Source: a virus
IMG/VR virus record: IMGVR_UViG_3300009515_000004
Span: 1 to 41,529 of that record
DNA: 41,529 nucleotides
Direction: 5' to 3' (one strand)
The stretch's first letter is position 1, and each line of letters starts with the position of its first letter. Below are positions 7,839 to 41,529 of the stretch, one piece after another. The notes under the pieces were generated by a model. It was not told the origin of the DNA and did no database searches. It saw nothing but the letters and a program-made list of their open reading frames with translations. A program made the translations under genes and the position numbers.

Positions 7839-8747
7839 ATGAATGAAGCGTTTGTCGTCGTCTGTGACTCAAGAGATCGGGAGAAGTGGCTGGCTGCCAG
7901 GCAGGAGGGGGTCGGTGCCAGCGAAGCTGCAGCCGTCCTCGGCATCAGCCCGTGGGATTCGCGGCTGTCGCTGGCCGCTCGGAAGGCCGGAGCGATGGAG
8001 CCCATCGAGGACAACGAGTTCATGGCTGCCGGCCGCAGGCTCGAGCCCTTCATCGCTGAGTGGGCGTTGGAAGAGAACGAGATCAACCGGCGCGGGATGC
8101 CGTGCGGTCTGATGCTTCGCAGCATCGCGATGCCGTGGCTGTTCTGCACGCCGGACTGGTGGGTGGAGGAAGAGTACGAAGGCGAGAAGATCCGTGTCCC
8201 GCTACAGGTCAAGAACACCATGCGCGCTTCCGACTGGGATGATGGAGTGCCGGACCCGATCATGATCCAGTGCCAGACGGAGCAGATCGTCACGGGATCT
8301 CCTTGGAGCTACGCCGCTGCGTTGCTGACAGGCAACCGACTGCGATGGGTACGAGTCGATCCGAACCCTGATCTCCATGAGTCGATCATCACGAACACGA
8401 AGAAGTTCTGGGATGACCTTTCTGCTGGGAAGATCATTGATCCGGACGCCAGCAAGGCGAGCACCGATGCACTTCGTGCACTCTACCCGCAGGACAACGG
8501 CGAGACGATCGCACTCGACGGCGAGTACCTCGAGATCGCCCTGGAGATGGACGGACTCAAGCGCGAGCGGAAGGAGATCGACGAAATCATCAACCTCGGA
8601 GAGAACCGCATCAAGGCGGCGATGGGGGATGCGACGTTCGCCACGTTCCCGGACGGGAGCGGCTACACGAACAAGACACAGACGCGGAAGGAGTACGTCG
8701 TGAAGGAAACTTCATTCCGCGTGCTCCGACGAAAGGATGCGAAATGA
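7839..8747 (+). CDS. YqaJ-type viral recombinase exonuclease (lambda-Exo-like)
   Basis: N-terminal REKWLAARQEGVGASEAAAVLGISPWDS is the typical YqaJ signature. Immediately upstream of RecT with an ATGA overlap. Confidence 0.85.
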   Translation: MNEAFVVVCDSRDREKWLAARQEGVGASEAAAVLGISPWDSRLSLAARKAGAMEPIEDNEFMAAGRRLEPFIAEWALEENEINRRGMPCGLMLRSIAMPWLFCTPDWWVEEEYEGEKIRVPLQVKNTMRASDWDDGVPDPIMIQCQTEQIVTGSPWSYAAALLTGNRLRWVRVDPNPDLHESIITNTKKFWDDLSAGKIIDPDASKASTDALRALYPQDNGETIALDGEYLEIALEMDGLKRERKEIDEIINLGENRIKAAMGDATFATFPDGSGYTNKTQTRKEYVVKETSFRVLRRKDAK

Positions 8748-9568
8748 GCGAGCTGACCACGACGAAGCAGAAGGAGTACTCGATCCAGGATTACCTGATG
8801 TCTCCGACGTTCCACCGGCAGCTCGCCCTGGCCGCGCCTCGTGACGTCCAAGCGGAGCGGATGGCGAGGGCTGTACTCACCCTGGTTCGCGGCGATCCGA
8901 AGCTTGCGAGCTGCACGCCGAAGTCCCTCATGTCGGCGGCGATGTGCTGTGCGCAGACCGGGCTCGAGCCTGGGGCGCTGGGGCACGCCGCAGTGGTTCC
9001 GTACAACGGGATCGCGCAGTGGCAGGCGATGTACAAGGGGCTGCTGCACCTGATCTACAGGTCTGACAAGATCAGCGCGGTGCAGGCCGGCGTCGTGCAC
9101 GAGCTTGACGAGTTCGACTACGACGAAGGGTCGTCACCGTTCGTCCACTGGAAGCGCGGGCTTCGATCGGAGGATGAACGAGGCGATCGGATCGCAGTGT
9201 TCGCCGCGATCGTTCCAAAAGAAGGGCCGTCGATCGTTCGAATCGAGCACATTTCAGAAATCGAACGAATCCGCAAGCAGTACAGCAAGGGCAAGCGGGA
9301 TGACCGACCGTGGGTGACGGAGTACGACGAGATGGCGCGCAAGACCGTGGTCAAGCGCGCAGCCAAGCTCGCGCCGATCAGCGTCGAGATGGGGTTCGCG
9401 ATCGGCTACGACGACCTGGCCGAGGTGGGGAAACCGCAGCTTGCGTACACGGACGAGCCGAAGGTGGAGGAGTACTGCAACCTGACCGTGGGAGACACGG
9501 ACATCGCATGCTCACTCGCACCGGGGCACGAGGGAGAGTGCTCGCCTACTCCTCTTTCGGAGGAATGA
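8744..9568 (+). CDS. recT: RecT-family single-strand annealing protein
   Basis: RecT-like blocks: SLMSAAMCCAQTGLEPG, AAVVPYNG, YKGLLHLIY, MARKTVVKRAAKLAP. Paired with the exonuclease. Confidence 0.9.
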   Translation: MSELTTTKQKEYSIQDYLMSPTFHRQLALAAPRDVQAERMARAVLTLVRGDPKLASCTPKSLMSAAMCCAQTGLEPGALGHAAVVPYNGIAQWQAMYKGLLHLIYRSDKISAVQAGVVHELDEFDYDEGSSPFVHWKRGLRSEDERGDRIAVFAAIVPKEGPSIVRIEHISEIERIRKQYSKGKRDDRPWVTEYDEMARKTVVKRAAKLAPISVEMGFAIGYDDLAEVGKPQLAYTDEPKVEEYCNLTVGDTDIACSLAPGHEGECSPTPLSEE

Positions 9569-10636: not shown

Positions 10637-12289
10637 TCAATCAAACCTTCCCCGGTCGTCGTGCCAGCCGAGAGTCACGACCGTTATCTGAGTAGATGCG
10701 TCGTTCAATGAGCGGCACCTGATTTCCCTGTCAGCGTCTGTTCTGATGGAGATCTCTGCTCCGACGTCGATGCTCGTAGCGGAGAAGAAAGAAAGATGCG
10801 CCAACGGGGCTGCTGTCTGGGAAGGGGAAGCGCTTGTCGTCGCAGTCTCCGTGAATACCACAAGACCCGGTGCTCCGCTCAACGTACCGTTCTCGTTCAC
10901 CATTAGCTGAGTTCGAAGAGACGGAGGGCTGTATGTGAGGGCGATGTCTACCCCGGCTGTGTAATCGGCTGTGTTGGTGAACGACACGATTGGAACGACC
11001 CATCTGAAGTCATCACCATCCTGAAGGAAGTCGAGCATCGACGCTGAGTCGTGCACCCATCCGATTCTTCGGAAGTACGTCCAGTCGGTAAGCTCTGCCG
11101 CGGCCTGGCCGTTCGTGAAGTCAGCGTCATCGTCGAATGCAATTTCGGTTGTCCCGTCTGCCTTCGCAATCAGGAATACACCGTACCATCCGAGGTTCGC
11201 AGCGACGCCGGATACGCGGCCACCTAGCCCATCTCCTTCGACCCACGGATTGCCTGCGCTGATGTCCTTCGTCAGTGCGCTATTCAGTCTCGCATTGATC
11301 AGCGACGGATCCGATGCGTCTCCGATACGAGCTTCACCAGTACCGACTGTCAATATTGAAGCCGAAGTCCGAGTGAGCTGGAGCCCGCCGATGGATCCTC
11401 GAGCCCATGGCGCTTCGATCGGAACGAGGTTCGCCACAGGGTGTGCATCTCTGAGCAGCACGTTCTGGTCGGTGTCGAGATAGATCCTTCCTGCCGTAGC
11501 TGCGGCGGCAGCGGGCAGTGATGCCGTGGCGAACTGAGCGATGTTCTGTTCTGTCCATGTGGTTCCGTTCGAGTACCACAGCCGACCTTCATCGTTTGAG
11601 AAGAACAGTCCGATCCCAAACGCGGCCGCAGCCGGTCGGTTTACATCAATCGCCACGCGGATCTCATCCACGTTGCCGGCGTTGTGCGGGGCTTCCAGCC
11701 TGGACGGCCCTCGCATTTGCGCAAACGTGTCTGCCACGAGCAACGCGCCGTCGCCCGAAACCGTCGTCGCTCCGCTGATTGCCGTCGTTGCGATGGACAC
11801 GGAACCATCCGCTGCAAACGTCAGATACCCGCTTGCTCGCGTCACCTTGTCAGGCAGCTCGAGACTCGGGTAGCCGTCGTCCGTGTCGCGGTCGGTAGAA
11901 GGCTGGCGGATGTACCGCTCTTCCTTGCCGTTGTACTCCTGGGTGAGCATGACCAGTCGATCGAGAGCGTTCTCGACGGAAGCTGCCGGGAACTCCTGGC
12001 TCGGCGTGAGATCGACCTGCTGCGTCTGATCCGTGACGCGGTCGATGTGGACCTCTTCTCCGCTCGCCGGGATGGAAGCCGCCACGAACGTGACTCGCCC
12101 GGTGCTCCCGTTTCCGCCCGTCACCGTGTAGTCAGTCGTTTCAACCTGGACAACATCGACACCCGTAGCAACCGTGCGGATCGTGACGACGATCTCGTCC
12201 GAATCGAAGAACTCGAACGACGTATCGAAGTCCGTCGTGGATCCGTTCCCGTCGAACGTGTCACGAATCGTCGTGGTAGTGACTGTCAT
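10637..12289 (-). CDS. Tail fibre / receptor-binding protein
   Basis: N-terminus FDGNGSTTDFDTSFEFFDSDEIVVT...TDYTVTG...IDRVTDQTQQVDL...ALDRLVMLTQE is the common phage tail-fibre N-terminal module. It occupies the position after the internal-core genes, as T7 gp17 does. ATGA-coupled. Confidence 0.75.
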   Translation of the reverse strand: MTVTTTTIRDTFDGNGSTTDFDTSFEFFDSDEIVVTIRTVATGVDVVQVETTDYTVTGGNGSTGRVTFVAASIPASGEEVHIDRVTDQTQQVDLTPSQEFPAASVENALDRLVMLTQEYNGKEERYIRQPSTDRDTDDGYPSLELPDKVTRASGYLTFAADGSVSIATTAISGATTVSGDGALLVADTFAQMRGPSRLEAPHNAGNVDEIRVAIDVNRPAAAAFGIGLFFSNDEGRLWYSNGTTWTEQNIAQFATASLPAAAAATAGRIYLDTDQNVLLRDAHPVANLVPIEAPWARGSIGGLQLTRTSASILTVGTGEARIGDASDPSLINARLNSALTKDISAGNPWVEGDGLGGRVSGVAANLGWYGVFLIAKADGTTEIAFDDDADFTNGQAAAELTDWTYFRRIGWVHDSASMLDFLQDGDDFRWVVPIVSFTNTADYTAGVDIALTYSPPSLRTQLMVNENGTLSGAPGLVVFTETATTSASPSQTAAPLAHLSFFSATSIDVGAEISIRTDADREIRCRSLNDASTQITVVTLGWHDDRGRFD

Positions 12290-21000: not shown

Positions 21001-21215
21001 ACAAACGGGATCAGCCTGGATACGACTGTAGAATCGGATGCTTCTGAGACGAACCGGGTTCCGGATCGGCGTACCAGCGGACCCTGCGGAGTCACCTGGA
21101 AGTTCTTCAAGAACGCGGCGGCTCGCGCGTAGAGAGCCAGGTCCGTTCTGCCGTAGAGCCTCGGAGAGAACTCCCCGGCGTTGAATGCATTTTGGATCGG
21201 GGAGAATCTAGGCAT
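18093..21215 (-). CDS. Tail tubular protein B / nozzle (T7 gp12-like), with inserted repeat domains
   Basis: N-terminus FSPIQNAFNAGEFSPRLYGRTDLALYARAAAFLKNFQVTPQGPLVRRSGTRFV, and later QFDRSADVMYLVHRNHAPRTLSR, are typical of this family. The ATG at 21215 overlaps the upstream stop by 1 nt. Confidence 0.8.
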   Translation of the reverse strand: MPRFSPIQNAFNAGEFSPRLYGRTDLALYARAAAFLKNFQVTPQGPLVRRSGTRFVSEASDSTVVSRLIPFVVSDDESYVIELSHLKMRFFRNEGKLLHSPLVIIAETQAYADSSEFLSVGHGYAHNAGPFTATTTGTFDTSTQYFLRKPQPIEFSDGDVSTTAETISKVSHNLTSRMGPFRLETSSTIPGGLELEKDYWINVVSDDTFQLSETRGGTSVNITSAGDGDMVLRPTDEYARNVFRLAEGRTGPVTTFDDPSPIGTHTLTLNTATIVEIDTPYLESELFEIQFDRSADVMYLVHRNHAPRTLSRFSAQGFSLEVIEFDDGPYLDINADADHTMQPSANTGNNITITSSKAYWTPADVGTPVRIDTESTGNWGWARIVSIDPVTFDVGSGDVQTANMSAINVSLEQVTATGHLMDTGELVRLNVDGGGVLPDGLTTTSEYWIRAVDANTLAFYTSKQDAIEDVDRVDIETGSFSATPVIISSVIDVVAHGFTGGEGPFRLKPDTPNVLPGGFDENTDYYIGFVDVDSFYLTETKNGRPTTFTEIATGAVVSISGDGMLPVARANVKSNFGGTTASTLWRVPAWSSRAERGFPAAVSFHEQRLWFGGNAGAPLTLYASVTADFLNFRPTGSAGDLDSTVNDDNALTFVISSNEVNNIQWMSAIRTLIVGTASNTFSVQASTITSAITPSNVQILGRTAKGSLRIRPIVVDDRVVYISDTALKAFSLGYSFESDSYLAEDLTLLAEEITESGITQVEYAPAPFSTAYMTKVDGEALSIAIMRDQNVSGWGRIEAGGTDVVIESVAVIPSPAGDASSVGRENRKHDQVWLSVRRTVNGSTVRWIEFIEDIFATDDSLDDAFFVDGGITYNGVAKTSIDGLTHLANETVDVLADGNVLRDQTVSAGGVLTLDEAASKVHIGFRYESDFQSLRLALTDQEGSAQGKLGRIDHLVLRLDNTMGGTYGPNSSDLTELDLVPHDLEMGTLTGLFTGDIEVDFDAGWDTYGEVYVRQADPLPMTLVALLPKLQKGARGNRAR

Positions 21216-23014
21216 CAGTCCCTCTCTCTCGCCCTTCCCCGGGTAGACAACCAAGCACTGAAAGGACGAACCTCTCTTGGCTGCTGTTCTTGACCGTTCG
21301 CTGTAGCAGCCGCTTCAGAACGACTTCTGAGTATTCCGAATACTTCACGGAGCTTCTCGCTCGATCCTGTCACAGCCTCCGCGAGATCCACGGCAATCAG
21401 CGCCGACAGGGTCTGGCGGAAATCGACAGTCATATCCATGGGACTTTCAACGCGCCGAATATACTCGATCTTCAGCGGAGGGAAGATGTTGGTGATAATG
21501 GCCCTCCCCTCGATGATCCAGGAGAGAGCGTACTCATTCTCGACATCCACGACGCGAAGGCAGTCTTTCGGAAGCGGATACATGTATCCGTATTGCCAAG
21601 CCGGTTTTGTCGCAGACGAGGAAATCTCTGCCCTTGTCACCGCGAAAGACCACGGAATCACGCGAAGGAGCTCGTCCCGAAGATCGCAAAAACGATCAGC
21701 GATTAGCCTGGCAGTCTTCTTTGAGTCATTGAGGGAGTCTATTCTTTGCTCCCCGAGAAGGACGAGGGCACCGTTGGCAATCGAAGTCTCGGATGCGGAA
21801 AACTCGTCAGCCGCTGTTGTTGGAACCGTCGCTGGAGGAGGAGCGATTGGTTTCGTGTACGTTATTTCGAGAGAAGCTCCGAGAGCCTCGATCTCTTCAA
21901 TCGTGTTGTCCACCTTCGTAGGGTCGAACGCAATCGCGAACCGACGATCTGTTCCATCGCCGATGATGTCGTAGTTCGGGAGGTTTACGCCGCCGTCATT
22001 GATGATGGCGTCTATCACCTGACCGAGATTGGCAGCAGTGTAGTCAGGCGAAGTTGACGCATCGCCGAAGCTGACCGTGTCGTCCACCAGTCGGAGCACA
22101 GGCATTGTGTACGGGCCGTACAAAAGCGCGGCCAGATGATTCGGTGCGCTGAATGTCGCGTTGGTGTCGTTGACCGTGGGCTGCGGAAGCGAGTAGTCGC
22201 TGAAGATTGCGTGCCTTCCGAATCCGTTCGTCGATCCTTTCATCCCGAATGAAGATCCGCCCTGGGCTTGAACCATTTGCAATTCTATGGTGTTCGTAGC
22301 GTCAGGCCACGTCGCGTCACTTAGTTGATAGATGATGACTTCGTTCGCACTATTGCGGATGTTCCTGGAGAAATTGAAAACGACAGGAACGTCCTGTGCA
22401 GTCGGCAAATCGTTGAATAGAACAGCGTCGGAAGTCTGAATCAGATCTCCGCGTCTCCAGTAGTACGGACCACCCGTCGTGCGATAGGCGTCGATCGTCA
22501 GGCTTGGGTTGGAAGCAAGCGAGCCGATTCGTCGCATCCTGGCCTGAAAGCGGTTGACGTCTTCGACTCCGTTGTGCGCCAATCCGAACATCGGAGCGAC
22601 GTCGCCTTCCGCAGGGTCCATCGTGTAGTAGTAAAGAGTCGGAGCGGGCGGCTCGATCCAGCTCGTCGCGACAGCCGCCGTGGCCCCCCAGGCAGAGGAC
22701 CTGCTCTGAGTTCCGGATGAAACCTGATCCCAGTCGGTGGTCCGACCCCAACCGCTGGCGTCGTTCAGCAGAGCCATCCGGAGGACGAAATTCGCGAATG
22801 CGAGCTTCTTCCAGGTAAGCGTAATCTTGGCACTGTGAATCGTACTGCCGCGTGGAACGTCATCGAGGTTCCAGGCGATGTATGCGGTGGCCTTCCGGCT
22901 GAAGGCGTCGTCGCCGAACTTGAGCGTGGACTCGGTGGAGTTGTCGCCCTGCGGGAGCTTGTCTCGATACCCATACGTGTCGCTGACGGGGTAGTAGACG
23001 CTGGTTGTACTCAC
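21215..23014 (-). CDS. Fusion protein: unknown ~400-aa N-terminal domain plus a C-terminal adaptor (T7 gp11-like) domain
   Basis: GTG start. The C-terminal ~195 aa (SETSIANGALVLLGEQRIDSLNDSKKTARLIADRF...) parallels the whole of ORF 23033..23653. Confidence 0.75.
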   Translation of the reverse strand: MSTTSVYYPVSDTYGYRDKLPQGDNSTESTLKFGDDAFSRKATAYIAWNLDDVPRGSTIHSAKITLTWKKLAFANFVLRMALLNDASGWGRTTDWDQVSSGTQSRSSAWGATAAVATSWIEPPAPTLYYYTMDPAEGDVAPMFGLAHNGVEDVNRFQARMRRIGSLASNPSLTIDAYRTTGGPYYWRRGDLIQTSDAVLFNDLPTAQDVPVVFNFSRNIRNSANEVIIYQLSDATWPDATNTIELQMVQAQGGSSFGMKGSTNGFGRHAIFSDYSLPQPTVNDTNATFSAPNHLAALLYGPYTMPVLRLVDDTVSFGDASTSPDYTAANLGQVIDAIINDGGVNLPNYDIIGDGTDRRFAIAFDPTKVDNTIEEIEALGASLEITYTKPIAPPPATVPTTAADEFSASETSIANGALVLLGEQRIDSLNDSKKTARLIADRFCDLRDELLRVIPWSFAVTRAEISSSATKPAWQYGYMYPLPKDCLRVVDVENEYALSWIIEGRAIITNIFPPLKIEYIRRVESPMDMTVDFRQTLSALIAVDLAEAVTGSSEKLREVFGILRSRSEAAATANGQEQQPREVRPFSAWLSTRGRARERD

Positions 23015-23032: not shown

Positions 23033-23653
23033 CTATAGAGGCGTGCCTTGCCCACTAGGGATTCTCCTGGAGAATCCGACCGCGTCTCTTGAGTCGAGCC
23101 ATTCACCGGCTTCGACGAAGGCCGGGCTTGGTTCTTGCCCGTCTGGCGTGCGGGCGGACTGAAGCTTCGACTGATAGATGTTCTGGAGCTCCTGGACCTT
23201 GGTATTCGTTCCGGTGATCGCCTCAGCCAGATCCCACGCGAGGTGGGCGGCGAGGGCCTGGCGGAACAGAACGTCCATCTCCGTGGGATCCGTTACCTGC
23301 TTGGTGTAGACGATCTCGAGGGGCTCCCCGAGGTCCGTCACGATCGCGCGCCCCTCGACGCGCCAGGGCTCGCCGCCGGGGTTGTTGACGTTCAGGAGGC
23401 GAAGCAGGTCTTCGGGGAACGGGTAGAGGTTGTTGAATCCCCATACCGGCTCCTCCGTGTCCTTCGCGATCTGCGCCCTGGCCTGCGCGAAGTTCCACGG
23501 ATGCACGCGCAGCGTGTCGTCGCGCACTTCGTCGAACCGCTCCTTGATCAGCTTGGCGGTCTTCGACGTGCCATCGATCGAGTCAATGCGACGCTCGCCC
23601 AGAAGGACGAGCGCCGCATTGGCAATCGAAGTCTCCGAGGGAGACGAGGCCAT
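23033..23653 (-). CDS. Adaptor / tail tubular protein A (T7 gp11-like)
   Basis: SIANAALVLLGERRIDSIDGTSKTAKLIKERFDEVRDDTLRVHPWNFA...YPFPEDLLRLLNV is the pattern I associate with gp11-type proteins. It lies just upstream of the nozzle gene. Confidence 0.75.
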   Translation of the reverse strand: MASSPSETSIANAALVLLGERRIDSIDGTSKTAKLIKERFDEVRDDTLRVHPWNFAQARAQIAKDTEEPVWGFNNLYPFPEDLLRLLNVNNPGGEPWRVEGRAIVTDLGEPLEIVYTKQVTDPTEMDVLFRQALAAHLAWDLAEAITGTNTKVQELQNIYQSKLQSARTPDGQEPSPAFVEAGEWLDSRDAVGFSRRIPSGQGTPL

Positions 23654-23656
23654 GGA

Positions 23657-24205
23657 TCAGTTTCCACCCGCGGTGTAGACGGCCTCCAGGACGAACTCGG
23701 CACCAACCGTCACCGCAGTTTCCGTGTTCATCGTCAGCACCAGATCCCACAGCTCGACGGGGTCTGCGGAGTAGGATCCTCCACCCTCGTCGGCGAGCTG
23801 CCAGAGGTGCTTTCCGCGGTCCTCGTCTTCGAGTACCGCCAGCGCGAAAAGATCGACACGCGCGATGGCAACGGTGAGGTCGTCGCAGGGTGACGTCGCA
23901 GCGGCGCAGAACAGGTCCAGGTCGATGACCGCCCCTCCGTCCGTGGCGTAAAGACCCATGTCGGAAGTCATTGTCGTTCCGGTCAGAGACGGAGTGCTCA
24001 GGTACAGGTGGATCAGCCGATCGGAACTCTTCATCTGCATGAAGCGAACCTGCTCGTCGTCCGTCACGCCTGCCGCCACTGTCGCCGTGGCGCGCTTGTA
24101 GCGGAGCGTAGCGTGGTCGAGCCCCGGTCCGGCCTTGATGCGAGGATCGTCCTGTGAAGTTCCGCCGACGGTCGTCGTGAAGTGGTCTGAGTAATAATCG
24201 GCCAT
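23657..24205 (-). CDS. Paralogue D of the four-member family (182 aa), unknown virion-module protein
   Basis: MADYYSDHF..., LRYKRATATV, DDEQVRFMQMKSSDRLIHLYLST, GKHLWQLA, DPVELWDL. AAGAGAG SD upstream. Confidence 0.75.
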   Translation of the reverse strand: MADYYSDHFTTTVGGTSQDDPRIKAGPGLDHATLRYKRATATVAAGVTDDEQVRFMQMKSSDRLIHLYLSTPSLTGTTMTSDMGLYATDGGAVIDLDLFCAAATSPCDDLTVAIARVDLFALAVLEDEDRGKHLWQLADEGGGSYSADPVELWDLVLTMNTETAVTVGAEFVLEAVYTAGGN

Positions 24206-24272
24206 TTGATTTCTCTCTTTCTTTCACCCGCGCCTCAGAGCCCCGGACATTCCGCTGACTCGTTGCGCAGAA

Positions 24273-24878
24273 TCAATAATCGTAGTTCGTCCCGCCTTCG
24301 GCCTGGATGTAGTAGAACTCAATGACGAACTCGCCAGTGGCGTTGTTGGTCGGAGTGAACGATACGTCCGTGATGATGTCCACGGCAACCTTCGGGTCTT
24401 CCGAGTACGTCGTCAGTCCGTGCTGGTTCATGTGATCCCAGAGAGGCTTCCCGCGATCATCAGCTCCGAGGGTTCCTCCCTGGAAGAATAGAGACGTCTT
24501 GCGGGACTCTGATGTCATTCCGGCGTTCGTAAAGTAGAACGAACCCAGCCGGGTGCTCGTGCCTCCACTGATGAAATCGTTTTGCAGCTGTGCCGACATG
24601 GTCAAGTTGCCATTGGCCTGCCCTTGGGTCGACAGGAACACGTCGATGATCCGGTCGGAGCTGTGGAACGATACGGTTCGGATGAACTCGCTCTGGTTGT
24701 AGCCAGTCGGGGCTGGTTCGCCTCCTGCCGGCCTGTCTTCCGTGACGAGGTTGATGTATGCGCGCTTGTAGCGAATGATGCCGCCGGACTCACCCATCTC
24801 CCGCTTGAAATCAGGATCCCACGCGAGTAGCGGCTCGCCTGTTTCTGGGCCGAACAGCGATGAGTAGTAGGTCGTCAT
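24273..24878 (-). CDS. Paralogue C (201 aa)
   Basis: Internal ATG of ORF 24273..24971 overlapping the stop of paralogue B (ATGA). MTTYYSSLF, IRYKRAYINL, FIRTVSFHSSDRIIDVFLST, GKPLWDHM. Confidence 0.75.
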   Translation of the reverse strand: MTTYYSSLFGPETGEPLLAWDPDFKREMGESGGIIRYKRAYINLVTEDRPAGGEPAPTGYNQSEFIRTVSFHSSDRIIDVFLSTQGQANGNLTMSAQLQNDFISGGTSTRLGSFYFTNAGMTSESRKTSLFFQGGTLGADDRGKPLWDHMNQHGLTTYSEDPKVAVDIITDVSFTPTNNATGEFVIEFYYIQAEGGTNYDY

Positions 24879-25462
24879 GACACCGCCTTCGTGTACCAGA
24901 GCTGGACGTCGATGTTGCCGTTGATGATACCGGCACCGCCCACATCGGTGATCGTTCCGATGAGATCCCACTCCTGGTGAGGGTTCGTCGAGTAGGACAA
25001 ACCCGTCACGCGATCGTTGGCAATCTCCCAGAGACTCTTTCCAAGATCGTCGAAAGGATCCATGAGTGCCCCGGGATTGGCGAGAACCGACTCTTCCTCG
25101 AGTGTCGATCCGATGTCCACGACGCCGGCCAACATGTCAACAGCATTCGCATGAACGAGGGGGCCGTCGTGAGCGATTCCCTTGAGCGCGATTCCGATGT
25201 CCATGTCAGTGGCTGCCGTCCATGGAGCTTTCGTGCTCACGAGAATCCGTAGCGGAACATCGCCGGATTTCATCGGGAACAACCGCAGAACGTCTCCATC
25301 CTGCACTGGGTCAGTGGCTGGAAGATTGCGCACGACGCACTTCATGTAGCGGACTGGAGCGTACTGCCGCGTCGCTGAAATCTTCAGCGTCGTTCCGTCT
25401 TGCGCGAGCTGCGACGAAGCCGTCGCGCTTCCGAGATACTGGTCCGAGAAGTACGTGGTCAT
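24875..25462 (-). CDS. Paralogue B (195 aa)
   Basis: Internal ATG of ORF 24875..25597 overlapping the stop of paralogue A (ATGA). MTTYFSDQY, VRYMKCVVRNL, DGDVLRLFPMKSGDVPLRILVST, GKSLWEIA, NPHQEWDL. Confidence 0.75.
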   Translation of the reverse strand: MTTYFSDQYLGSATASSQLAQDGTTLKISATRQYAPVRYMKCVVRNLPATDPVQDGDVLRLFPMKSGDVPLRILVSTKAPWTAATDMDIGIALKGIAHDGPLVHANAVDMLAGVVDIGSTLEEESVLANPGALMDPFDDLGKSLWEIANDRVTGLSYSTNPHQEWDLIGTITDVGGAGIINGNIDVQLWYTKAVS

Positions 25463-26031
25463 GTGTAGAACATCGCGACGACGAGTTTTCCACTCGTCGT
25501 GTTCCCAGCAATGTCGGTCGGCGAGACGGTCAGATCCCACTCCTCCTTGGGATCTTGCGTCAGCGCAACACCCGCATCGGCAGCGTGCTCCCAGCACCGC
25601 TTGCCAGCGAGCTCGATCGATCCTCCCGCCACATCATCGGTCGTGACGTTGAAGTCCTGGTACGCGCCGTTCGTTGGATCGATCGTGATGTCTCCGCCAG
25701 ATCCAGAGAATATCTCCGCATCAACGATCGCACCGTCGTGATTCGCGCCCTTCTTGTGAAAACCGATGTACGCGAGCGGACTCGTTCCACCATCGAACTG
25801 ACCATCGGTGCTGAACCGAAGCTCAACGACCCGGTTTCTCGACCGGATTCGAGCCATCCTCACGACGTCGCCATCGCTGAGAGATGCCCCTACGGCGGTG
25901 AGATCGCACTTGCCAATCGCGACACGAAGCGGCGCTCCATTGATGTCATCCGCACCGTGCGATCCTTCATCAATGGTCCGCATGTCACCGTCGCGAGAGT
26001 AGTGATCGCTGTAGTAGGTGATGACTGTCAT
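25459..26031 (-). CDS. Paralogue A (190 aa)
   Basis: MTVITYYSDHY, LRVAIGKCDL, DGDVVRMARIRSRNRVVELRFST, GKRCWEHA, DPKEEWDL. First gene after the capsid-gene hairpin. Confidence 0.75.
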   Translation of the reverse strand: MTVITYYSDHYSRDGDMRTIDEGSHGADDINGAPLRVAIGKCDLTAVGASLSDGDVVRMARIRSRNRVVELRFSTDGQFDGGTSPLAYIGFHKKGANHDGAIVDAEIFSGSGGDITIDPTNGAYQDFNVTTDDVAGGSIELAGKRCWEHAADAGVALTQDPKEEWDLTVSPTDIAGNTTSGKLVVAMFYT

Positions 26032-26043
26032 GGCGGTAGGTTA

Positions 26044-26070
26044 GGGCGGGCGCTTTGCGAGCGCCCGCCC
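26044..26070 (-). terminator. Perfect 11-bp GC stem-loop immediately downstream of the major capsid gene
   Basis: GGGCGGGCGCT ttgcg AGCGCCCGCCC, 9 nt after the capsid stop. No U-tract. Same position as T-phi after T7 gene 10. Confidence 0.5.
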
Positions 26071-26078
26071 CGACTCCA

Positions 26079-26972
26079 TTACGCGAGCAGTTCCAGAATG
26101 ACGACGCCCTTCTCGTCCATCCGGGTGGCTCCGAGATCGATCTCGTAGCGGACCTGGGTGGCGTGGCGCTTCATCGGAAGGATGTCCATGAAGGCCCGCG
26201 CCTCCTGGCCCATCGCGATCTGCATCGACTTCTTCACCCAGAACGGCAGCTTGATTGCAGCACTCACCAGGCCGAGTCGCTGGCTCTTGTGGAAGTTGAA
26301 GCCGACGAACGTGTCGATCTGACCGTTCACGAGAGCCTTGATCGTGTTGTAGTCGGAACTCGTGACTGTCGAGTTGTCCAGCAGATCCTGGCGCGCCTTG
26401 GCGGTGAGTGCAGCGTGCCAGCTGTTCTCTCCGTCGTCCTCTTCGTTCTCGGCCGCCTCCAGCACCTCGCGTGCTTTCGTCAGGCCACCGATGTCGAGCG
26501 CGGTGCCCGTTCCAGTGGATGCCGTTCCGTCTGCCTCCCACTGGTAGTTGGTCGTGTCGAACGCCGCTGTCCCAGAGCCGTCCACCTCCGTCGCCGCCGT
26601 GGCATCGAATGCGGCGATCAGCGTGTCATCGACACGACGACCCGCCGCTGCAGCCATCGACCGCGTGTACGGGTTGATCGGGTCGTTGAGCAGCCGACGC
26701 TGATCTGCGGGGTCCACGAGGTCGGCGACTTCGTAGGTACGCAGAGTCACCATCCTGCGCCGATGGGGCGTATCGGTGTACTCGGTGTCACCGTGCCTGT
26801 TGGTGACTTCGGACATCGCCGTCGCATCGACCTGATCGTAGAACGCCCGATCTCCGGTGATTTCACCATCGACCATTGCTCCAGTGCGAAGGTTGGAGCC
26901 CATCTGCTGCTGCAGCATGCGTACGCCGGCAGCGAATTTCTTGACAAATGCAGTGGTGATTTCTGTTGACAC
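26079..26972 (-). CDS. Major capsid protein (HK97-fold, T7 gp10-like organisation)
   Basis: GTG start with GGAGG 8 nt upstream. N-terminal FVKKFAAGVRMLQQQMGSNLR...GDRAFYDQVD...DTPHRRRMVTL...DLVDPADQRRLLNDPINPYTRSMAAAAGRRVDDTLIAAF matches the capsid family pattern. It follows the scaffold gene. Confidence 0.85.
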   Translation of the reverse strand: MSTEITTAFVKKFAAGVRMLQQQMGSNLRTGAMVDGEITGDRAFYDQVDATAMSEVTNRHGDTEYTDTPHRRRMVTLRTYEVADLVDPADQRRLLNDPINPYTRSMAAAAGRRVDDTLIAAFDATAATEVDGSGTAAFDTTNYQWEADGTASTGTGTALDIGGLTKAREVLEAAENEEDDGENSWHAALTAKARQDLLDNSTVTSSDYNTIKALVNGQIDTFVGFNFHKSQRLGLVSAAIKLPFWVKKSMQIAMGQEARAFMDILPMKRHATQVRYEIDLGATRMDEKGVVILELLA

Positions 26973-28037: not shown

Positions 28038-28367
28038 TCACTCTCCTTGTCTCGCCAGCGCGAATCCGCGAGCCCGCCTGAACAGGTCCTCGTGCTCCAG
28101 CTCGATGAATCCCATGATCTGGAGCATCACGCGGCGTTTGCCTTCGTTGAAGGCGGTTTGGTGAGAATCTCCCGACTCGTAGGTCGGAAGGCCAATTCTG
28201 CAGAAATCGTACAGGTACGCGAGAACCATCTCGCCCTGTGGCGTTGCGAACGTCGTGGCGAATGCGCTGCGAAGCGACTCCTCGTCGATCAGACTCCGCT
28301 GTTGAATCGCGAGCCAATCGTCCTCTTCCTGGTCGTACCCGTGGCTGACCGGGATCTCGGTGCTCAC
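28038..28367 (-). CDS. Small conserved phage protein, Bbp19-like (109 aa)
   Basis: GTGA overlap with the portal stop. FATPQGEMVLAYLYDFCR...AFNEGKRRVMLQIMGFI resembles, from memory, the Bbp19-type motif (G..VL.dL..fc ... eGrR.V.L.I). Confidence 0.6.
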   Translation of the reverse strand: MSTEIPVSHGYDQEEDDWLAIQQRSLIDEESLRSAFATTFATPQGEMVLAYLYDFCRIGLPTYESGDSHQTAFNEGKRRVMLQIMGFIELEHEDLFRRARGFALARQGE

Positions 28368-29980
28368 TGGTTCCCGCCGACACCGTCAAGCGCCGGGATC
28401 AGCTTCGAAGCGCCCTCGGCGACGGCCAAGCCCTCGGCGAGTTGCTGCTGCTGCGCTTGCGCCTCGGCCTGCGCGCGGCGGATCTCGATGACCTCTGCCT
28501 TCGGGCGCATGATCTTCGCAGGAACACCGTTGCCTTCGAAGATCGCGCGCGCGGCGGAGTCCATGTTCACGTTGTCCACGACGCCAGGATCGACGGTTGC
28601 CATGGCGGCAATCGCCTGGAACGAATCCAGGATCGCCTGGGATTCACTCGCCTTCTGCGCGCGCGCGACGGGGGAGACGTACTCGATCTTGATCTCCTGG
28701 CCCTGCAAGAAATCGGGAGCCTGTGGGAAGTTCGGGCTCCGCGACAGGATCCCGTAGACCCGCTCGATCATCGGCTCGAGGAGTTCGGTCTGCATCCGGC
28801 CGAGCACCGGAGAGAGGATCCGCTGCGAGAGCCTCGCGAGCTCGATCACCTGGGTGGCCGTCATGCGCGGATCCTGGAATGCCTGAATGATCTCCGAGTG
28901 GTACGCCTTGCGGATCAGCTGCGTCTTCGTCTCGATCACGAGGTCGGAGATGTCGAACCGGCCGCGATGCTCCAGGTAGCGGACGGGATCGAGGCGCGAT
29001 CCGGTGGGCCGAACGGTGATCCGCGCGGAGGGCGTGATGCGAAGCTGGCTGCCCGGCATGACGCCATCGTCTTCGACGAGCAGCGGCGGGTCGGCTGCCT
29101 TCTCGGCATTGCGGATGTAGGTACGCCAGATGGCGTTCAGCATCTTCGCGTCGGCCAGGGAGTCGATGCCAGGCCCGCGCCCGTACAGCTCGCCGGAGTC
29201 TTTGTTCCAGCGAGACACCATGTACGGGTTCTCGAAGTAGCCGCCCTCGCTGACGACCTTCTTGTCGTCGAGCGAGATGTAGATGCTCGCCCAGGGCATT
29301 CCCTTCGCATCGATCCGGCCGGGAAGCGGCTGTGGATTGCGGCGCACGAGGTGCAGGAACTCGTGCTCATTGTTGACGTGGTTCGCCTCGACGTCCTTGG
29401 CGGATCGCGGGACGGCCTCCTTCCCGAACTGCTTGACTGCCTGCCACGCCAGAAGTTTGAACTTCCGGTAGACCACGGTGATCCGCCCGCTGTGGTCCTC
29501 GTCGATGAACAGCTCCGACAGCGGCCTCGAGGAGAATCGCGCACCGAATCCCGGCTCGTCCTCGACGAAGATTCCGCTGGTTCCGAAGGCGACGAGGTCC
29601 GTGTAGACCTCGTGCATGTTGGTGTTGAAGGCAGACTCCGGCCGCCTGAAGCTGTTCAGCATCTCCTGCTCGACTTCATCGAGCCAGAGAACAGCCTCAT
29701 CGACCTCGTTGAGCTGGGAACGCTGGAACCGTAGGTCGAACCAGTCGGTGGCTGGATTCGTCAGCAAGCTGTGGAGCGCGGCAGCCAGCAGGTTCGTGGC
29801 GTCACGCGCGGTCGTGTCGTAGATCTTGATCTGCCGCTGGGTACCCGGCTGGCGCTTCGTGTTGAAGTCACGGCGTCCGAGCGTGTGATCGGCCACCTCC
29901 TGCCAGTGGTTCTCCCACTCGGTGCGGCCGTCACGCAGCTTCTCCCAGTGGGATGAAATCTCTTCGATCAGGTCCGGCAT
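28364..29980 (-). CDS. Portal (head-to-tail connector, T7 gp8-type)
   Basis: N-terminus RTEWENHWQEVADHTLGRRDF...IYDTTARDATNLLAAALHSLLTNPATDWFDLRF is characteristic of podovirus connector proteins. 538 aa, following the terminase genes. Confidence 0.85.
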   Translation of the reverse strand: MPDLIEEISSHWEKLRDGRTEWENHWQEVADHTLGRRDFNTKRQPGTQRQIKIYDTTARDATNLLAAALHSLLTNPATDWFDLRFQRSQLNEVDEAVLWLDEVEQEMLNSFRRPESAFNTNMHEVYTDLVAFGTSGIFVEDEPGFGARFSSRPLSELFIDEDHSGRITVVYRKFKLLAWQAVKQFGKEAVPRSAKDVEANHVNNEHEFLHLVRRNPQPLPGRIDAKGMPWASIYISLDDKKVVSEGGYFENPYMVSRWNKDSGELYGRGPGIDSLADAKMLNAIWRTYIRNAEKAADPPLLVEDDGVMPGSQLRITPSARITVRPTGSRLDPVRYLEHRGRFDISDLVIETKTQLIRKAYHSEIIQAFQDPRMTATQVIELARLSQRILSPVLGRMQTELLEPMIERVYGILSRSPNFPQAPDFLQGQEIKIEYVSPVARAQKASESQAILDSFQAIAAMATVDPGVVDNVNMDSAARAIFEGNGVPAKIMRPKAEVIEIRRAQAEAQAQQQQLAEGLAVAEGASKLIPALDGVGGNQ

Positions 29981-41189: not shown

Positions 41190-41434
41190 AGAAACCCAGA
41201 CTGTCGGAAACGCTGTTGACCGCATCGAAGCTGCAAGCGGGAGAGTCCCGCTGCAGTCCCGAGGAGCTGGCGGAGTTGTCGCTGGAGGCGCTCCGCATGG
41301 AGCAGGCACTCGAGATGCTGCGCAGCTTCGTCGAGAGCGTGAGCCTGAACGCCGAGAGCGGACTCGGACGCACGCAAGCGGCGTTGCTGCTGGGTGTCGT
41401 CGAGAACGCGATGCACGGGAGGAGCGTGAAATGA
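41186..41434 (+). CDS. Hypothetical protein (82 aa)
   Basis: ATGA overlaps at both ends. Confidence 0.65.
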   Translation: MKKPRLSETLLTASKLQAGESRCSPEELAELSLEALRMEQALEMLRSFVESVSLNAESGLGRTQAALLLGVVENAMHGRSVK

Positions 41435-41529
41435 AGGACGTCTTCTACGAGGGCGAGGTGTTCGTGACGTACCACGCGGTGAGCGGCGTGATCCGCTGGT
41501 TCACCACCGATCGGCGCATCGGGTTCGAA
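41431..41529. repeat. Right copy of the 99-bp terminal direct repeat (duplicate of the 5' part of CDS 1..198)
   Basis: Identical to 1..99. The ATG at 41431 overlaps the stop of ORF 41186..41434 (ATGA). Confidence 0.95.

Follow-up and report, generated by a model that had tools for sequence, protein, structure and literature searches.

Four tandem paralogues between the capsid and adaptor genes

The IMG/VR virus record IMGVR_UViG_3300009515_000004, analysed here as a single window of 41,529 nucleotides (nt), carries four consecutive related genes, named A to D below, whose products we examined as putative capsid-associated proteins. An exact 99-bp direct repeat is found at both window ends (1-99 and 41431-41529), and the window therefore represents a complete genome of ~41.43 kb, either circularly assembled or terminally redundant. 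The source is an uncultured marine-type phage, a short-tailed podophage of the HTVC010P type. The four genes are located on the minus strand, after the major capsid gene and before the tail adaptor gene:

25459-26031, minus strand: paralogue A, 190 amino acids (aa), ATG start; first gene after the major capsid gene, a divergent extra copy
24875-25462, minus strand: paralogue B, 195 aa, ATG start, which overlaps the A stop
24273-24878, minus strand: paralogue C, 201 aa, ATG start, which overlaps the B stop
23657-24205, minus strand: paralogue D, 182 aa, ATG start; canonical copy, adjoining the adaptor gene

An original prediction made from the sequence had described four tandem minus-strand genes of 182-201 aa with ATGA overlaps at the A/B and B/C junctions and with D ending 3 nt before the adaptor ATG, and its coordinates, lengths and junctions were all correct. 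The C/D junction is a 67-nt gap that includes a purine-rich ribosome-binding region.

A to D are true paralogues, and their similarity is far beyond chance. Pairwise BLASTP comparisons gave identities of 22-31% over nearly the full length, with E-values of 2e-13 (A/B), 2e-12 (A/D and C/D) and 1e-9 (B/D), and weaker values for A/C (2e-6) and B/C (2e-4). A hidden Markov model (HMM) built from 21 outside homologues of D independently recovered A (9e-21), B (3.5e-19) and C (7e-21), while the best of 800 shuffled controls reached 6.9 bits and no other open reading frame (ORF) in the window was matched. These two lines of evidence bear out the mutual paralogy originally proposed. The five collinear sequence blocks described for the array were all found as well, except that the fifth position of the second block, given as K or I, does not fit C and D, in which this block reads I/L-R-Y-K-R. 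Paralogue A has two additional N-terminal residues (MTVITYYS), and paralogue C has a 12-residue expansion in its B-C loop and a degenerate DP...WD block. The possibility that these genes are decaying duplicates was ruled out, as the four ORFs are intact, all family motifs are kept, and the array is mirrored at a second phage locus (L032, see below).

A large family of uncharacterised phage proteins

A word-indexed search with D retrieved 22 proteins and a search with the resulting alignment retrieved 42, all metagenomic and unnamed. An exhaustive profile search extended the family to 1,720 cluster representatives (50% identity) at E <= 1e-3, including 890 at E <= 1e-10, nearly all of them 165-205 aa long. 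This large family has no Pfam or PHROG model of its own, and no functional annotation was associated with it in any database record found. HTVC010P gp10 belongs to the family: it matches D at E = 1.5e-7 and the family profile at E = 5.7e-14, is annotated as hypothetical, and has BLAST-level relatives only in four other Pelagibacter phage records. Among isolated phages, we found no nucleotide match to the 9-kb region around the array, and tblastn searches with A and D gave nothing useful.

Two family members retrieved by the exhaustive search have unusual architectures. One (P0180, 338 aa) carries an extra domain of ~160 residues inserted in the D-E loop. The other (P0043, 646 aa) has a family domain at its N-terminus and a second, complete one at its C-terminus (starting MTTWYSPQF), separated by ~300 aa of unrelated sequence; it is either a true fusion protein or the product of a missed stop that joined two or three genes.

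A cement-protein gene position and a cement-like jellyroll fold

The slot between the capsid and adaptor genes had been taken as normally empty, by comparison with the T7-type gene order. This is true for T7, but HTVC010P, BPP-1 and Pam1 each have a small gene there, and T7 is the wrong comparator because the head module of the window is of the BPP-1/HTVC010P type, with a Bbp19-like protein and a phrog_394 adaptor. HTVC010P carries gp10 (165 aa) and gp11 (74 aa), in this order, between its capsid and adaptor genes, and the genes of the cyanophage Pam1 run from portal through scaffold and capsid to cement gp6 and the adaptor. BPP-1 has portal, bbp20, bbp19, bbp18, bbp17 (capsid), bbp16, bbp15, bbp14 (adaptor, phrog_394) and bbp13, in which bbp16 encodes a solved cementing protein (3j4u_H; PMC3863775). 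A to D thus occupy the same slot, after the capsid and before the adaptor, as bbp16 and gp6. Because both BPP-1 and Pam1 hold solved cement genes at this position, it is the cement-protein slot of a broad podophage head module.

Predicted structures point in the same direction. AlphaFold models of D and B were built from 35-sequence alignments. Model D (mean predicted local distance difference test score, pLDDT, 83.3; predicted template modelling score, pTM, 0.76) comprises eight strands and one helix, with low confidence for residues 1-33, and model B (mean pLDDT 81.7, pTM 0.74) has the same eight-stranded architecture with one to two helices. Both are compact eight-stranded jellyrolls, although at 182-201 aa the proteins exceed the ~125-160 aa range of cement proteins. 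Foldseek searches against the PDB, from which the best 50 matches per model were considered, returned the following cement proteins (TMt and TMq, TM-scores normalised to target and query, respectively):

Pam1 cement, 7eel_H: model D, lowest E-value, TMt 0.61; model B, TMt 0.50
GP4 cement, 8h89_J: model D, TMq 0.54 and TMt 0.62; model B, top match, E = 3e-5, TMt 0.60
KHP40 cement, 7dou_4: model D, TMt 0.44; model B, TMt 0.54
KHP30 cement, 7dn2_1: model D, outside the best 50; model B, TMt 0.49

Non-cement jellyrolls among the best 50 of either search all scored below 0.5, the highest being a satellite plant-virus coat protein at 0.49, and the coats of RNA viruses and birnaviruses mostly scored ~0.15-0.4. 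Against predicted viral structures, the matches were mostly uncharacterised proteins of uncultured phages, with annotated matches to a "Structural protein" of Pseudomonas phage KPP25 and a "Virion associated protein" of Burkholderia phage BcepMigl. Decoration proteins are known with several other folds, including the tulip of lambda gpD, the beta-tadpole of T4 Soc, the immunoglobulin (Ig) fold of T4 Hoc and the oligonucleotide/oligosaccharide-binding (OB) fold of phage L Dec; none of these four was among the best 50 matches of D or B.

Across decoration/cement, head-fibre and jelly-roll folds, D and B are thus best matched by solved phage cement proteins. One of the three functions originally put forward, head fibres, was not supported when compared with the elongated trimeric fibres of the phi29 gp8.5 kind, as the models are compact and single-domain, with no fibre or coiled-coil part, and no fibre proteins appeared among the fold matches. 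Another of the three, a decoration or cement role, is the one favoured by the jellyroll fold and by the BPP-1/Pam1 cement slot. We propose that A to D are a tandem-expanded set of paralogous jellyroll capsid cement/decoration proteins, an interpretation of these models and of the gene context to which we assign a probability of roughly 0.7.

Sequence comparisons link the family to known cement proteins through intermediates. The family profile aligned over its full length with the family of p008, a 143-aa post-capsid protein of Ralstonia phage DU_RP_II (97.1% hhalign probability, E = 5e-11), and p008 in turn matched Pam1 gp6 by phmmer at E = 0.01. Two PHROGs annotated "virion structural protein", phrog_8455 and phrog_486, matched HTVC010P gp10 (4.5e-6 and 1.3e-4, respectively), p008 (7e-4 and 4e-3) and Pam1 gp6 (0.014 and 1.2e-3), and were matched by 17 and 5 of 150 family members (best 3.8e-6). 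Homology of the family with Pam1-type cement proteins is therefore probable but not proven; these ties to solved cement proteins are weak and transitive only, so that the cement assignment draws mainly on fold and gene position. The same links bear on whether A to D act outside the virion altogether, as assembly helpers or as decoys or inhibitors of host defences that sense capsid proteins. Such a role could be entertained since the family is without functional annotation and the virion presence of A to D is itself an extrapolation; it is nonetheless extremely unlikely, as both fold and gene position match solved virion proteins, the remote PHROG links lead to virion structural families, and the KPP25 and BcepMigl structural homologues are annotated as virion-associated.

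One conserved and one variable pole

A standard jellyroll barrel has its B-C, D-E, F-G and H-I loops at one end and its C-D, E-F and G-H connections at the other. We mapped conservation across the 150 family members, along with mean identity among A to D, onto the strands of model D:

N-terminal arm: conservation 0.58, A-D identity 0.39
C-D turn, KS-x-DR: conservation 0.74, A-D identity 0.56
E-F loop: conservation 0.64, A-D identity 0.37
DRGK-x-LW helix in the G-H connection: conservation 0.56, A-D identity 0.44
B-C, D-E, F-G and H-I loops: conservation 0.31-0.39, A-D identity 0.09-0.17

The loops of the last group are also variable in length. With poles placed according to standard jellyroll topology, the picture is of a protein with one conserved pole, a conserved and intrinsically unstructured N-terminal arm, and one variable pole. 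Such polarity would be the expected outcome of the arm and conserved pole docking on a shared partner (the capsid protein and/or each other) with the opposite pole facing the solvent, and the conserved regions agree with the contact regions reported for the cement proteins of BPP-1 and Pam1.

Copy number and history of the array

Copy number at this position was assessed by searching every retrieved locus for matches to the family profile and to three proteins of the window (capsid, adaptor and nozzle), which yielded 22 distinct related loci including the window (loci labelled L, individual family proteins P). A family gene follows the capsid gene in all 22. Most loci have a single copy (13 of 22: HTVC010P, L004, L008, L011, L012, L015, L022, L023, L024, L028, L033, L037 and L039), six have two (L006, L020, L026, L027, L034 and L038), and three have four (the window, L021 and L032). 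The survey of related phages called for in the original prediction thus revealed one, two or four copies, with more than one in 9 of the 22 loci: the family is not unique to the window contig, and multi-copy arrays are common. Two possible correlates of copy number were tried and ruled out, namely genome length (a 43-kb relative, L033, has one copy) and changes in the capsid protein, which has the same length at any copy number.

The array of L032 allows a direct comparison. Its genes are arranged as in the window and encode A' (truncated at the contig end; 43% identical), B' (52%), C' (35%) and D' (38%), each protein being the best match of its positional counterpart in the window, with ATGA and GTGA overlaps at the same places and a C'-D' spacer of 63 nt. 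The L032 adaptor is 80% identical to that of the window. Since order and junctions are shared while the array proteins are only 35-52% identical, the four-gene array has been retained as such, with its proteins evolving at a much higher rate than the neighbouring adaptor.

The four copies differ in their affinities. In BLASTP comparisons, D is 62-68% identical to the copy in its nearest relatives L006 and L008, up to 77% identical to P0002 and 51-54% identical to L004 and L012, a divergence that tracks the 63-68% identity of the capsid proteins. D is accordingly the canonical and vertically inherited copy, ancestral in our reading, and is the orthologue of the gene that related phages carry singly. 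For A, B and C, identities to nearly all other members are only 19-33%: the nearest relatives of A other than L032 A' are 31-33% identical, and the exception is a B-type group (P0039, P0040, P0041 and P0133) 42-63% identical to B. Scans of IMG/VR and JGI metagenomes found no close relatives of B. GC content at third codon positions (GC3) rises along the array, from 0.67 (A) and 0.70 (B) to 0.74 (C) and 0.76 (D), against 0.78-0.86 for the core head genes (portal, scaffold, capsid and adaptor). This gradient below the core head genes fits a later arrival of the A-C block (24273-26031) from a lower-GC phage, and together with the GC3 of 0.655 in the gene directly after the adaptor (21215-23014) suggests that both segments, whose overall GC content is clearly reduced as well, are mosaic and exchanged. 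Copies within two-copy arrays can also belong to different sub-lineages, as in L020, where one copy groups with L004 and the other with L023 in a neighbour-joining tree; arrays were therefore probably built by recombination between related phages, besides duplication in place. Deep branches of this tree have bootstrap values below 60%, and it does not resolve a common origin of the window and L021 arrays.

This unequal history could also mean that only D is a structural cement, with A to C sharing its anchor, competing for capsid sites and presenting different outward surfaces (adhesin-like or antigenic variation, similar to Hoc). Capsid surfaces would then be mosaic or variable, rather than cemented in a site-specific manner. 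We consider this unlikely, yet several observations argue for it: D alone tracks capsid divergence, with A to C remote from almost everything; the gap between adaptor and array-protein identity in the window/L032 comparison is typical of exposed, interaction-prone proteins; variation is concentrated at one jellyroll pole; model B resembles a lectin domain (6zzw_B, TMt 0.44); and one copy suffices in most related phages. However, this lectin match is weaker than the cement matches, Pfam and PHROG scans detected no carbohydrate-binding or Ig-like family, and both the ATGA coupling and the preservation of the whole array in L032 suggest a fixed co-production of the four proteins instead of optional extras.

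Late operon, spacers and neck genes

The array is embedded in a minus-strand late structural operon, of which the following genes were identified:

28364-29980, minus strand: portal, PF12236
28038-28367, minus strand: Bbp19-like protein, PF25181
27153-28034, minus strand: scaffold
26079-26972, minus strand: major capsid protein, 297 aa, Pfam PF19821 (E = 3e-62); presumed binding partner of A to D
23033-23653, minus strand: tail adaptor, 206 aa, directly after the array, phrog_394 (E = 5e-46)
21215-23014, minus strand: 599-aa protein directly after the adaptor, with a C-terminal second adaptor domain
in the same minus-strand operon: nozzle-like protein, 1,053 aa

At 40-41% identity, the capsid protein matches its counterparts in Pelagibacter phages HTVC034P and HTVC010P; matches to uncultured podophages and to the Ralstonia phages DU_RP_II and RpY1 are weaker. 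The adaptor belongs to the same PHROG (phrog_394) as BPP-1 Bbp14 and weakly matches a solved connector protein (8ck1_E). Because A to D are on the same strand and tightly packed with the virion genes, co-expression with these genes is the simplest reading, and the production alongside virion proteins anticipated in the original prediction is consistent with both the operon and the translational coupling. A scan of 21-30.5 kb for sigma-70 promoters and intrinsic terminators found nothing above the shuffled expectation. Two spacers contain marked secondary structure:

26043-26071, minus strand: 12-bp GC-rich hairpin, GGGGCGGGCGCT-CGCAA-AGCGCCCGCCCT, between the capsid stop and the A start, without a U-tract
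24227-24271, minus strand: hairpin in the C-D spacer with the motif GCGGAATGTCCGGGGCTCTGA at 24235-24255, followed by the purine-rich ribosome-binding region

The 47-nt capsid-A spacer has a fold energy of -29.8 kcal/mol, and all related loci that were inspected (L004, L006, L008, L012, L020, L021, L023, L033 and L034) have a strong GC-rich hairpin just behind the capsid gene. Several of these post-capsid hairpins have the tip CGGA-N3-TCCG in common, which recurs in L034 between its two family copies; the hairpin may act as an attenuator, a processing site or a stabiliser of the mRNA. In the C-D spacer, GCGGAATGTCCGGGGCTCTGA is unique in the window (chance expectation, 0 matches), and the core motif GCGGAATGTCCGGG(G)CTCTGA is kept in the C'-D' spacer of L032, where the flanking proteins are only 35-38% identical. 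The C-D hairpin also has a CGGA-N3-TCCG tip resembling those of the post-capsid hairpins of single-copy L004 and L008 and of L006. Taken together, this likeness and the conservation in L032 suggest that the C-D spacer derives from what was once the spacer between capsid gene and D, with A to C inserted upstream. Possible roles of its motif and hairpin include RNA processing or stability, attenuation, or a recombination joint.

The neck genes after the array show features of their own. In the 599-aa protein, residues ~406-592 are 48% identical to the 206-aa adaptor (phrog_394, E = 2.6e-38), and the N-terminal ~400 aa have no family match; it may form a mixed adaptor ring with projecting domains. 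Similarly built proteins of 476-689 aa are encoded in L004, L006, L008, L012, L020, L023 and L032, and are absent from HTVC010P, L022, L024 and L026-L028. Among more distant relatives, the adaptor of L033 (6822-7868) is enlarged to 348 aa by an insertion matching PF16190, and in L037 the family gene is followed immediately by a single 837-aa gene (4620-7133), without a further called gene of adaptor size. The neck appears structurally variable in the HTVC010P-type phage group.

Given these neighbours, we considered whether A to D could be neck or tail components of the virion, for instance a collar or short appendages docked on the adaptor. The 3-nt distance from D to the adaptor gene, a siphophage R4C baseplate-tail chain among the fold matches of D (8gtc_T, TMq 0.40), and the possibility of an elaborate neck raised by the second adaptor-domain protein would all be compatible with such a location. 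We nevertheless regard it as very unlikely, since the tail match is weaker than the best fold matches, which are capsid cements, BPP-1 and Pam1 hold a solved capsid cement in the same slot, and the family is present in all of the above phages that lack the second adaptor-domain protein.

Elsewhere, the genome encodes a C-5 cytosine DNA methylase (PF00145), a recombination pair of YqaJ exonuclease and RecT, and a 550-aa protein whose match to the T7 tail-fibre N-terminal domain is borderline (24.7 bits, just under the cut-off of 25.2), which are listed here jointly:

1867-3363, plus strand; 7839-8747, plus strand; 8744-9568, plus strand; 10637-12289, minus strand: loci of the methylase, the YqaJ/RecT pair and the 550-aa protein

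A proposed role for A to D as capsid cement proteins

Under the cement interpretation, A to D would be expressed with the late structural genes, right after the major capsid protein, and would attach to the outside of the HK97-type shell at sites between capsomers. Contact would be made by the conserved N-terminal arm (M-x-x-Y-Y-S-D-H) as well as the conserved pole, i.e., the C-D turn KS-x-DR, the E-F loop, and the G-H helix with DRGK-x-LW and DP-x-x-x-WD, while the opposite pole (B-C, D-E, F-G and H-I loops) would point outward and be free to vary. A, B and C would correspond to extra, fast-diverging copies placed between the capsid gene and an ancestral D, probably through tandem duplication and/or recombination with related phages. 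Since the four genes are intact and translationally linked, their products may be used together on the virion, either in mixed oligomers or on different classes of lattice sites.

Several points weigh against the cement interpretation. No Pfam family was matched by A to D at E <= 1, including PF21190, the Bbp16 family, which Bbp16 itself matches at 3e-52. In a PHROG scan (E <= 0.1), only D gave a match, a sub-threshold one to phrog_33599 (unknown function, E = 0.052), and phrog_8455 and phrog_486 were unmatched by any of the four. Profiles of the family and of the p008-type family yielded only chance-level matches against PDB sequences, hhalign comparisons of the family with the single Bbp16 or Pam1 gp6 sequence gave probabilities below 1%, and that of the p008-type family with Pam1 gp6 was not significant. 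Structurally, Bbp16 was outside the best 50 fold matches of both D and B, the TM-scores of 0.5-0.6 obtained with predicted models show a shared fold, from which a shared function does not necessarily follow, and lectins and tail proteins can have jellyrolls too. At the level of the operon, the lower GC3 of A to C could mean that they are recently acquired cargo, not integrated virion parts, and the strong capsid-A hairpin, if attenuating, would fit poorly with a 1:1 cement-to-capsid ratio. Each paralogue would in that case be less abundant than the capsid protein, which is compatible with four proteins sharing the sites of one cement. Finally, the presence of A to D in the virion, their capsid binding, their orientation on the shell, their oligomeric state and their division of labour are properties that we infer only.

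How four paralogues might be accommodated leads to a more specific, and tentative, proposal: each could occupy its own class of quasi-equivalent sites on a T=7 shell (e.g., penton-adjacent vs. hexon-only), or the four could form obligate hetero-oligomers in the manner of the herpesvirus triplex, a scenario that we regard as possible without favouring it. If true, separate genes, and not the conformational switching of one protein, would be the means of resolving quasi-equivalence among the decoration proteins, and relatives with one, two and four copies would form a natural series for the evolution of such specialisation. Lattice-site specialisation, mixed oligomers and capsid-surface diversification are each possible explanations for the four proteins.

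More broadly, the stability of phage capsids and the properties of their surface are determined by cement proteins, which also find use as display scaffolds, and HTVC010P is among the most abundant phage types in the ocean. A probable function can now be given to a large uncharacterised family (~1,700 clusters at 50% identity) that includes HTVC010P gp10, and within which conserved arrays of up to four diverged paralogues exist. These arrays raise the question of how one icosahedral lattice fits several versions of the same brick, for which the relatives with different copy numbers provide a ready comparative set.

Comparison with known cement proteins

A jellyroll cement protein encoded right after the capsid gene is of an already known kind. 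In the solved cases found, there is one cement protein per phage, or two unrelated ones; our literature search found no report of tandem paralogous cement proteins, which does not show that none exists.

The closest structural parallels are Pam1 gp6, GP4 gp1 and the KHP30/KHP40 cements, which are small acidic beta-sandwiches of jellyroll/Ig-like type and the best structural matches of D and B. The GP4, Pam1 and KHP30 proteins form trimers at the threefold and quasi-threefold axes (PMC9698820). Pam1 gp6 further resembles the window family in its gene position between capsid and adaptor, in sharing PHROGs 486 and 8455 with relatives of the window proteins, and in its long N-terminal loop, a capsid-contacting arm that touches the capsid E-loop and parallels the conserved N-terminal arm described here (PMC9698820). 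Unlike these cements (chains of 124-155 residues), the window proteins are 25-75 residues longer, including the helix and the DRGK-x-LW and DP-x-x-x-WD motifs in the G-H region. The Pam1, GP4 and KHP phages each have one cement gene instead of four paralogues, and there is no significant direct sequence similarity.

BPP-1 shares with the window the overall head-tail gene order, the Bbp19-like protein and the phrog_394 adaptor, and Bbp16 is also a jellyroll. Bbp16 is a dimer at the twofold axes and contacts the capsid via its N-terminal loop and C-D loop (PMC3863775), regions that correspond to the most conserved ones of the window family. In contrast, A to D do not match PF21190, the hhalign probability of their family with Bbp16 is below 1%, and Bbp16 is outside the best 50 fold matches of D and B; Bbp16 is single-copy, and the capsid proteins belong to different families (PF20911 in BPP-1 vs. 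PF19821 in the window). HTVC010P gp10 and the DU_RP_II p008-type proteins are true homologues in the slot directly after the capsid gene, yet they are single-copy, shorter (165 and 143 aa) and annotated only as hypothetical.

For the use of more than one accessory protein on the same shell, the cyanophage A4 combines a dimeric major cement with a trimeric auxiliary cement (gp37 and gp25) on one HK97-type lattice (PMC12002296). The two A4 cements are unrelated in fold and encoded apart, whereas the four proteins of the window are homologous and encoded in tandem. The herpesvirus triplex, a Tri1/Tri2 heterotrimer, likewise offers a precedent for more than one accessory protein species on an HK97-type lattice.

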